Source of the DNA: Escherichia coli
Lineage (GTDB): Bacteria > Pseudomonadota > Gammaproteobacteria > Enterobacterales > Enterobacteriaceae
Length of the DNA: 1,238 nt
Assembly (NCBI RefSeq): GCF_003334355.1
Contig: NZ_QOWP01000092.1
Direction: 5' to 3' (one strand)
The translations under genes and the position numbers were made by a program. Shown piece after piece: positions 1 through 824 of the stretch (the stretch's first letter is position 1; each line of letters begins with the position of its first letter). The notes beneath the pieces were generated by a model that had not been told where the DNA came from, did not search any database, and saw only the letters and a list, made by a program, of their open reading frames with translations.

Positions 1-824
1 GCACTATGCGGATGCCATTCGTTATAATGCTCGAACGCCTCTGCAAGGTTCTTTGCTGCCGTTAACCCGTCTGGTTTAGGCATGATACTGATGTAGTCAC
101 GCTTTATCGTTTTCACGAAGCTCTCTGCTATGCCGTTACTCTCCGGACTCCGCACCGCCGTGTTCTTCGGTTCAAGCCCCAATATCCGGGCAAACTGCCG
201 TGTTTCATTAGCCCGGTAGCATGAACCATTATCCGTCAGCCACTCTACTGGAGACGCCGGAAGCTCGTTGCCGAAGCGGCGTTCCACCGCTCCCAGCATG
301 ACGTCCTGTACTGTTTCACTGTCGAAGCCGCCCGTAGTGACTGCCCAGTGCAGTGCCTCACGGTCACAGCAGTCCAGCGCGAACGTGACTCGCAGTTTTT
401 CTCCGTTATCACAGCGGAACTCGAACCCGTCAGAGCACCATCGTTGATTGCTTTCTTTCACGGCCACTTTGCCAGTATGTGCCCGTTTCGATGGCGGTAC
501 AGCGGTTTTTCGCTCAAGCAACAGCGCATTCTGGCGCATGATCCGGTAAACACGTTTGGCATTGATCGCAGGCATACCATCAAGTTCGGCCTGTCTGCGA
601 AGCAGCGCCCATACCCGACGATAACCATACGTGGGCAGCTCTCCGATAACATGGTGTATACGGAGAAGCACATCCGTATCATCTGAGTGACGGCTGCGGC
701 GACCATCTTTCCAGTCATCGGTTCGTCTGAGAATTACGTGCAACTGCGCACGCGACACCCGGAGACAACGGCTGACTAAACTTACTCCCCATCCCCGGGC
801 AATAAGGGCGCGTGCGCTATCCAC
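1..824 (-). CDS. insD: IS2 OrfB / InsD, DDE transposase catalytic domain; 3' end truncated by the window edge (about 274 of about 301 codons visible)
   Basis: Hand translation of the - strand in the frame whose codons occupy (3k..3k+2) gives an uninterrupted reading from GTG (824-822) to position 1: [43 protein letters not shown]...WCSDGFEF...WLTDNGSCY...[16 protein letters not shown]...[13 protein letters not shown]. The DDE triad is present: D at 429-431, D at 231-233, E at 123-125, with a conserved K seven residues after the E. The ORF is absent from the supplied track because it has no stop inside the window. Confidence 0.85.

Follow-up and report, generated by a model that had tools for sequence, protein, structure and literature searches.

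An IS2 copy in Escherichia coli carries the published catalytic triad of the IS2 transposase, InsD D132, D198 and E234, without substitution

Introduction

IS2 is among the earliest insertion sequences described. Its OrfA protein is a DNA-binding regulator and also forms the N-terminal part of the transposase, the active form of which (that is, OrfAB, and not InsD alone) arises when −1 ribosomal frameshifting at an A6G slippery site fuses OrfA to OrfB. Lewis et al. (2011) gave the catalytic carboxylates of IS2 OrfAB as D240, D306 and E342 (PMC3219604), an assignment that follows from alignment and from mutants of neighbouring residues, the same paper containing no alanine mutants (D-to-A or E-to-A) of the three carboxylates. 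The neighbours in question comprise W237 at −3 from the first Asp, A341 beside the Glu and, past the Glu, K346 and K349 (PMC3219604); W237R abolished transposition and left binding unaffected, A341P destroyed binding and A341T increased transposition by about 50% (PMC3219604). In the superfamily topology set out there, the triad residues lie on β1, after β4 and on α4 (PMC3219604).

IS911, IS3 and IS150/ISSau2 are alike in encoding OrfA and OrfB joined by a −1 frameshift at A6G, in having an rve-type core with a DD(35)E arrangement and a basic residue just after the E, and in moving by copy-out/paste-in via a figure-of-eight and a circle. The ISSau2 paper gives the convention by which such spacings are counted and reports no triad mutants, and a structure paper on ISCth4 concerns IS256, not IS3, and has no IS2 residue information. 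According to the literature, the left inverted repeat (IRL) of IS2 has TA, not CA, at its end and does not act as donor in step I. Retroviral integrases share the core fold and differ in their flanking domains: the IS2 transposase begins with a helix–turn–helix (HTH) and a leucine-zipper-like motif that come from OrfA, whereas the retroviral enzymes begin with an HHCC zinc domain, and the SH3-like C-terminal domain of the latter is absent from IS2. The transposases of IS21 (IstA), Tn7 and CAST (TnsB) and phage Mu (MuA) also have rve-type RNase H-fold cores, but belong to other families, with accessory domains and the partner ATPases IstB, TnsC and MuB.

Here we report that a stretch of E. coli DNA is a copy of IS2 in which InsD residues D132, D198 and E234 are the published triad D240/D306/E342; the triad itself is already known and is not new.

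Identity and extent of the element

The window (that is, the whole stretch of 1,238 nucleotides that was analysed) is an ordinary copy of IS2 (IS3 family, IS2 group), read on the reverse strand. Its reverse complement corresponds to IS2 nucleotides 1–1238 of 1331, with 95.8% identity to K-12 IS2A and no indels; window position 1238 is the exact IRL terminus of IS2, and the left edge stops 93 bp short of the terminus of the right inverted repeat (IRR), leaving the last 27 insD codons and IRR outside. The InsD fragment was recognized by the NCBIfam models PRK09409 ‘IS2 transposase TnpB’ (643 bits, cutoff 597, E 8e-194) and transpos_IS3 ‘IS3 family transposase’ (190 bits, cutoff 160), and OrfA by PRK09413 ‘IS2 repressor TnpA’ (276 bits, cutoff 229). 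Membership of IS2 is thus documented by near-identity, family models, overlapping open reading frames (ORFs) with A6G, inverted repeats with target duplication, and DD(35)E. The element is collinear with K-12 IS2A (insC1/insD1) over all 1238 bases and shares with it InsC, A6G, the IRL terminus, the triad and the triad neighbours; we class it as an iso-form of IS2, differing in sequence, rather than as a separate element. Its main features are as follows.

1..824, minus strand: orfB (insD), residues 1–274 of 301; 274 stop-free codons
782..1147, minus strand: orfA (insC), 121 amino acids plus stop, identical to K-12 InsC (121/121)
824..830, minus strand: A6G slippery heptamer AAAAAAG, annotated in RefSeq as ‘programmed frameshift’
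1197..1238, minus strand: IRL, reading 5'-TAGACTGGCCCCC... on the minus strand; inner boundary approximate
516..662, minus strand: HTH_21 helical domain, InsD residues 55–103, within the OrfAB ‘middle interval’
3..455, minus strand: integrase-type catalytic core, residues 124–274 (Pfam rve 124–227 and rve_3 216–274)

The two genes overlap in frames 0 and −1, with A6G inside the overlap. The GTG at 822–824 serves twice, as the InsD start of the annotation and as the codon with which reading resumes after a −1 frameshift, and the window breaks off before InsD residues 275–301 and the stop codon, which fall past its left edge. An OrfAB of 409 residues is reconstructed when the first 108 residues of OrfA, up to ...GRAKK, are continued in the −1 frame, so that a residue numbered n in InsD becomes n+108 in OrfAB.

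Several further observations concern this region. The RNA 3' of the slippery heptamer (746–817, minus strand) has a stable predicted fold (−44.3 kcal/mol, z = −3.3, with 0 of 200 shuffles as stable), in which a GC-rich 9-bp stem, GCGCACGCG / CGCGUGCGC, begins 6 nt after AAAAAAG. This spacing is that expected of a frameshift-stimulating stem-loop, making the stem a candidate stimulator; K-12 IS2A has an identical inner stem, and an outer 7-bp stem, incompletely conserved, overlaps the slippery site. Upstream of orfA, a perfect 9-bp inverted repeat, TATCACTTA/TAAGTGATA, occupies 1187–1206 with a gap of 2 nt, and ACTAGT palindromes lie at 1161–1178, between the orfA start and the IRL terminus; both kinds of repeat (1161–1206) fall within what the literature calls the protein-binding domain of IRL and the promoter. 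InsC also matches models of the IS66-family accessory protein TnpA below cutoff (NF047595: 62 bits against 74), which indicates a putative HTH-type N-terminal module common to IS3 OrfA and IS66 TnpA. Antisense to insD, a mechanically called ORF of 112 codons (348–686, plus strand) lies inside the conserved coding region, without evidence of being a gene.

A full copy 100% identical to the window, 1331 bp long, is present in E. coli PSS-12 (NZ_AP027697.1; L001 1408–2738), where RefSeq labels it ‘IS3 family transposase, programmed frameshift’. It carries IRR and IRL, the A6G site and full-length orfA and orfB, and is bounded by the 5-bp target duplication ATGAA/ATGAA. The insertion disrupts ymgC, in the ycgZ-ymgA-ariR-ymgC biofilm/acid-resistance connector operon (L001 1334–2918). 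Across complete E. coli genomes, megablast found matches in 4883 of 5426 (about 90%), with a per-genome median of 4 places. The band of at least 99% identity to the window contained 1248 records, and the 95–99% band contained 5703. K-12 IS2A, at 95.8%, falls in the latter band. The two bands suggest that E. coli may harbour at least two IS2 sequence lineages.

The catalytic residues

A preliminary description, made from the letters and their ORF translations, had placed a complete DDE triad at codons 429–431, 231–233 and 123–125, with index spacings of 66 and 36 residues and a Lys seven residues after the Glu. On minus-strand translation the codons proved exact to the base, and the spacings and the Lys exact as well. 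The residues that matter here are listed below.

429..431, minus strand: first catalytic Asp, InsD D132 = OrfAB D240; GAC, in WCSDGFEF (W129-C-S-D132), mid-β1
231..233, minus strand: second catalytic Asp, InsD D198 = OrfAB D306; GAT, in WLTDNGSCY, directly after β4
123..125, minus strand: catalytic Glu, InsD E234 = OrfAB E342; GAG, in SNGIAESF, on helix α4
102..104, minus strand: conserved Lys, InsD K241 = OrfAB K349; E+7, in ESFVKTIK
111–113, minus strand: K238, corresponding to HIV-1 integrase K156
372..374, minus strand: D151, in FALDCCDRE; conserved, last residue of β2, competing candidate for the first catalytic Asp

Index spacings of 66 (D132–D198) and 36 (D198–E234) translate, when intervening residues are counted, into D-(65)-D-(35)-E, which is the classic DD(35)E pattern, K/R at +7 included. 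All 29 of the 29 residue names in the mutant table of PMC3219604, the triad included, match the reconstructed OrfAB, so that D132, D198 and E234 are D240, D306 and E342 under the n+108 numbering.

A homolog search of 1.84 billion representatives yielded 6720 relatives, of which 35 (36–55% identity across the core) entered the conservation alignment. The triad columns hold D in 32 of 34, D in 34 of 35 and E in 33 of 35 sequences, and the Lys column holds K in 32 of 35. Thirty relatives retain all three residues; 27 of them have a D-to-E index spacing of 36 and the other 3 a spacing of 37. The D-to-D stretch is longer in the IS2 group, with 65 intervening residues here and 65–69 in most relatives, compared with the 60 reported for ISSau2. 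The exceptions at the triad columns (P0062, P0104, P0122 and P0036), which have non-acidic residues there, are probably decayed copies.

When the 1–824 minus-strand frame was compared with profile models, rve, rve_3 and HTH_21 matched and the triad positions were unsubstituted. The rve match (PF00665.32, 102 positions) runs from residue 124, which aligns with model position 3, to residue 227; it therefore spans D132 and D198, whereas E234 is covered only by rve_3. That rve stops short of E234 is a property of the model boundary and not of the protein, but it carries a caution for annotation, as an rve match alone does not show a complete triad when the Glu lies outside the model.

The same alignment shows C130 and C138 conserved in at least 90% of sequences, with D151 and R155 invariant in DCCDRE (residues 130–156, window 357–437). 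Judged by its conservation, this Cys-rich pattern (W-C130-S-D132, C138 and D151-C152-C153-D154-R-E, or WCSD...C...DCCDRE) is a signature by which the IS2 group differs from other IS3-family transposases, and it is distinct from the DDE triad. It is not known from other rve-type cores.

Integrase equivalence and fold

Equivalence to retroviral integrases was approached by sequence and by structure prediction. With phmmer, the 274-residue fragment gave no match among PDB sequences at E≤0.01. When the profile of the 35-sequence alignment was run against PDB with hmmsearch, retroviral integrase cores were matched, tDNGS...SPeSNGmAEsfVktfK being paired with TDNGSNF...NPQSQGVVESMNKELK. Direct comparison with HIV-1 integrase (D64/D116/E152) by hhalign used an HIV-1 sequence whose D116 and E152 segments agree with PDB chains. 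Both approaches paired TDNGS and SNGxAES..K with HIV-1 TDNGSNF and SQGVVESMNKELK, and hhalign (probability 88%) set L196-T-D198 against H114-T-D116 and ran without gaps through E234 = E152 and K241 = K159. Over this gapless stretch, D198, E234, K238 and K241 thus correspond to D116, E152, K156 and K159. The local alignment ends before reaching the first Asp; identity to the HIV-1 enzyme is about 14–22%, and β1–β3 are not alignable by sequence. Consistent with this, a profile restricted to β1–β4 (residues 118–205) found no integrase in PDB and returned only a spurious cell-wall anchor protein (E 1.4).

An AlphaFold2 model computed from the alignment reached a pLDDT of 92.4 and a pTM of 0.82, with the following predicted elements (InsD residues).

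Strands: β1 128–137, β2 143–151, β3 157–163, β4 193–197, β5 217–221
Helices: α1 169–184, α 201–214, α4 227–245, α5 253–270, α6 281–290 (outside the window)

The predicted order, β1-β2-β3-α1-β4-α-β5-α4-α5-α6, is that of the canonical RNase H/integrase core, as in HIV-1 integrase. An Asp lies on β1, an Asp after β4 and a Glu on α4, and D132 is modelled as the fifth residue of β1, within a W-x-x-D segment that the HIV-1 enzyme has on the same strand. The best Foldseek neighbours are all DDE enzymes (E 3e-11 to 1e-7), comprising IstA, TnsB (of CAST and Tn7), MuA and retroviral integrases. IstA, TnsB and MuA match best (E 3e-11 to 1e-9), with a global rmsd of 18–21 Å, such that only the core superposes. 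Neither the sequence and profile searches of PDB nor Foldseek returned a solved IS3-family transposase.

Alternative readings

As the integrase sequence alignment does not fix the first Asp, its placement at D132 follows from the fold topology, the start of the rve match and the literature, and the alternative that it is instead D151 of FALDCCDRE (giving a triad D151/D198/E234) deserves to be weighed. At least 90% of relatives retain D151, and forced extension of the hhalign alignment (-mact 0.01 or -glob) pairs IWQLD64CTH of HIV-1 integrase with TFALD151CCDRE. The columns of this forced pairing, however, have confidences of 0–2 on a scale of 0–9, and the pairing depends on the common tripeptide ‘LDC’. 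In the model, D151 ends β2, which would leave only β3-α1-β4 before D198, whereas the fold demands β2-β3-α1-β4, as is found from D132 to D198. The rve match from residue 124 takes in the W-x-x-D segment, and OrfAB W237 aligns with W61 of HIV-1 integrase, each three residues before its Asp, the W237R protein being inactive yet able to bind (PMC3219604). We rejected the D64/D151 alignment as a misalignment on topological grounds, and consider a catalytic role for D151 as the first Asp to be extremely improbable. The case carries a practical caution, as naive extension of a profile alignment can misplace the first Asp on a conserved, non-catalytic Asp of β2.

With the triad placed at D132, D198 and E234, it may still be asked what its presence says about activity, given that the triad is necessary for activity and not sufficient. 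The preliminary description took it to support a functional RNase-H-fold transposase core; the fold was upheld by Pfam, the AlphaFold model and Foldseek, but ‘functional’ exceeds what a triad can show. Indeed, the triad could be intact in a copy, or a lineage, that is an inactive relic, in which case it would be uninformative about present function: the window holds only 274 of the 301 InsD residues and lacks IRR, and InsD differs from that of K-12 at 11 positions (290 of 301 residues match; M39K, T47S, P107T, R119K, C137R, R143K, N168D, D187E, S190A, M214I and C290S), including C137R on β1 and N168D. Against this stands the identical copy in a complete genome, with both ORFs, A6G, both ends and a 5-bp duplication in ymgC, while the 1248 records with copies at least 99% identical and the median of 4 places per genome indicate recent spread. 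At 4.2% nucleotide divergence overall, InsC is identical to that of K-12 and the differing codons of InsD comprise 23 synonymous and 11 non-synonymous changes, showing that the gene is not decaying freely, and none of the 11 substitutions falls at the triad or at residues whose mutation reportedly impairs IS2. We therefore regard the relic reading as unlikely. To the more radical proposal that the D...D...E pattern arose by chance in a frame that is no transposase we give no weight at all: nothing speaks for it except how often Asp and Glu occur in proteins at large, and it is contradicted by family-model E-values from 8e-194 down to 1e-19, annotation in thousands of genomes, conserved columns and a confident fold. 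Judging from the identical copy, the spread and the pattern of substitutions, the window variant is most likely an active element.

Discussion

Taken as a whole, the explanation advanced here (that is, an IS2 copy with the triad D132/D198/E234 in an OrfAB enzyme of the chemistry outlined below) is almost certainly correct, although metal binding, chemistry and pathway would follow from family membership and literature. A low-frequency −1 slip at A6G (824–830), at the end of orfA, would yield the 409-residue OrfAB, in which, according to the literature, the OrfA-derived HTH and leucine-zipper-like regions would bind the inverted repeats in their inner parts while the DDE core works on the termini. 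As in the homologous retroviral integrases and other RNase H-fold transposases, a pair of divalent metal ions would be coordinated jointly by D132 on β1, D198 behind β4 and E234 on α4. The metal ions would first activate water, so that one strand is cut at the right end (IRR); the 3'-OH set free there, activated in turn, would then be transferred beside the left end (IRL) to form a figure-of-eight. Host replication may then convert the figure-of-eight into a minicircle, the junction of which is described in the literature as a strong promoter, and in step II both abutted ends of the minicircle would be cut and inserted into the target, duplicating 5 bp of it and completing copy-out/paste-in.

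The Cys-rich signature invites a further idea, drawn from conservation, that these residues form an extra metal-binding or redox-sensitive site that modulates catalysis; a separate idea of the same origin is that the 11-substitution variant (including C137R) differs in activity from K-12 IS2. Both are long shots, to which we attach a very small probability.

In summary, a reader without tools placed the three catalytic codons of this element to the base, which makes the locus a positive control for such readings. As the triad has already been published, the importance of the finding lies in the correct annotation of this IS2 copy, and in little beyond that.
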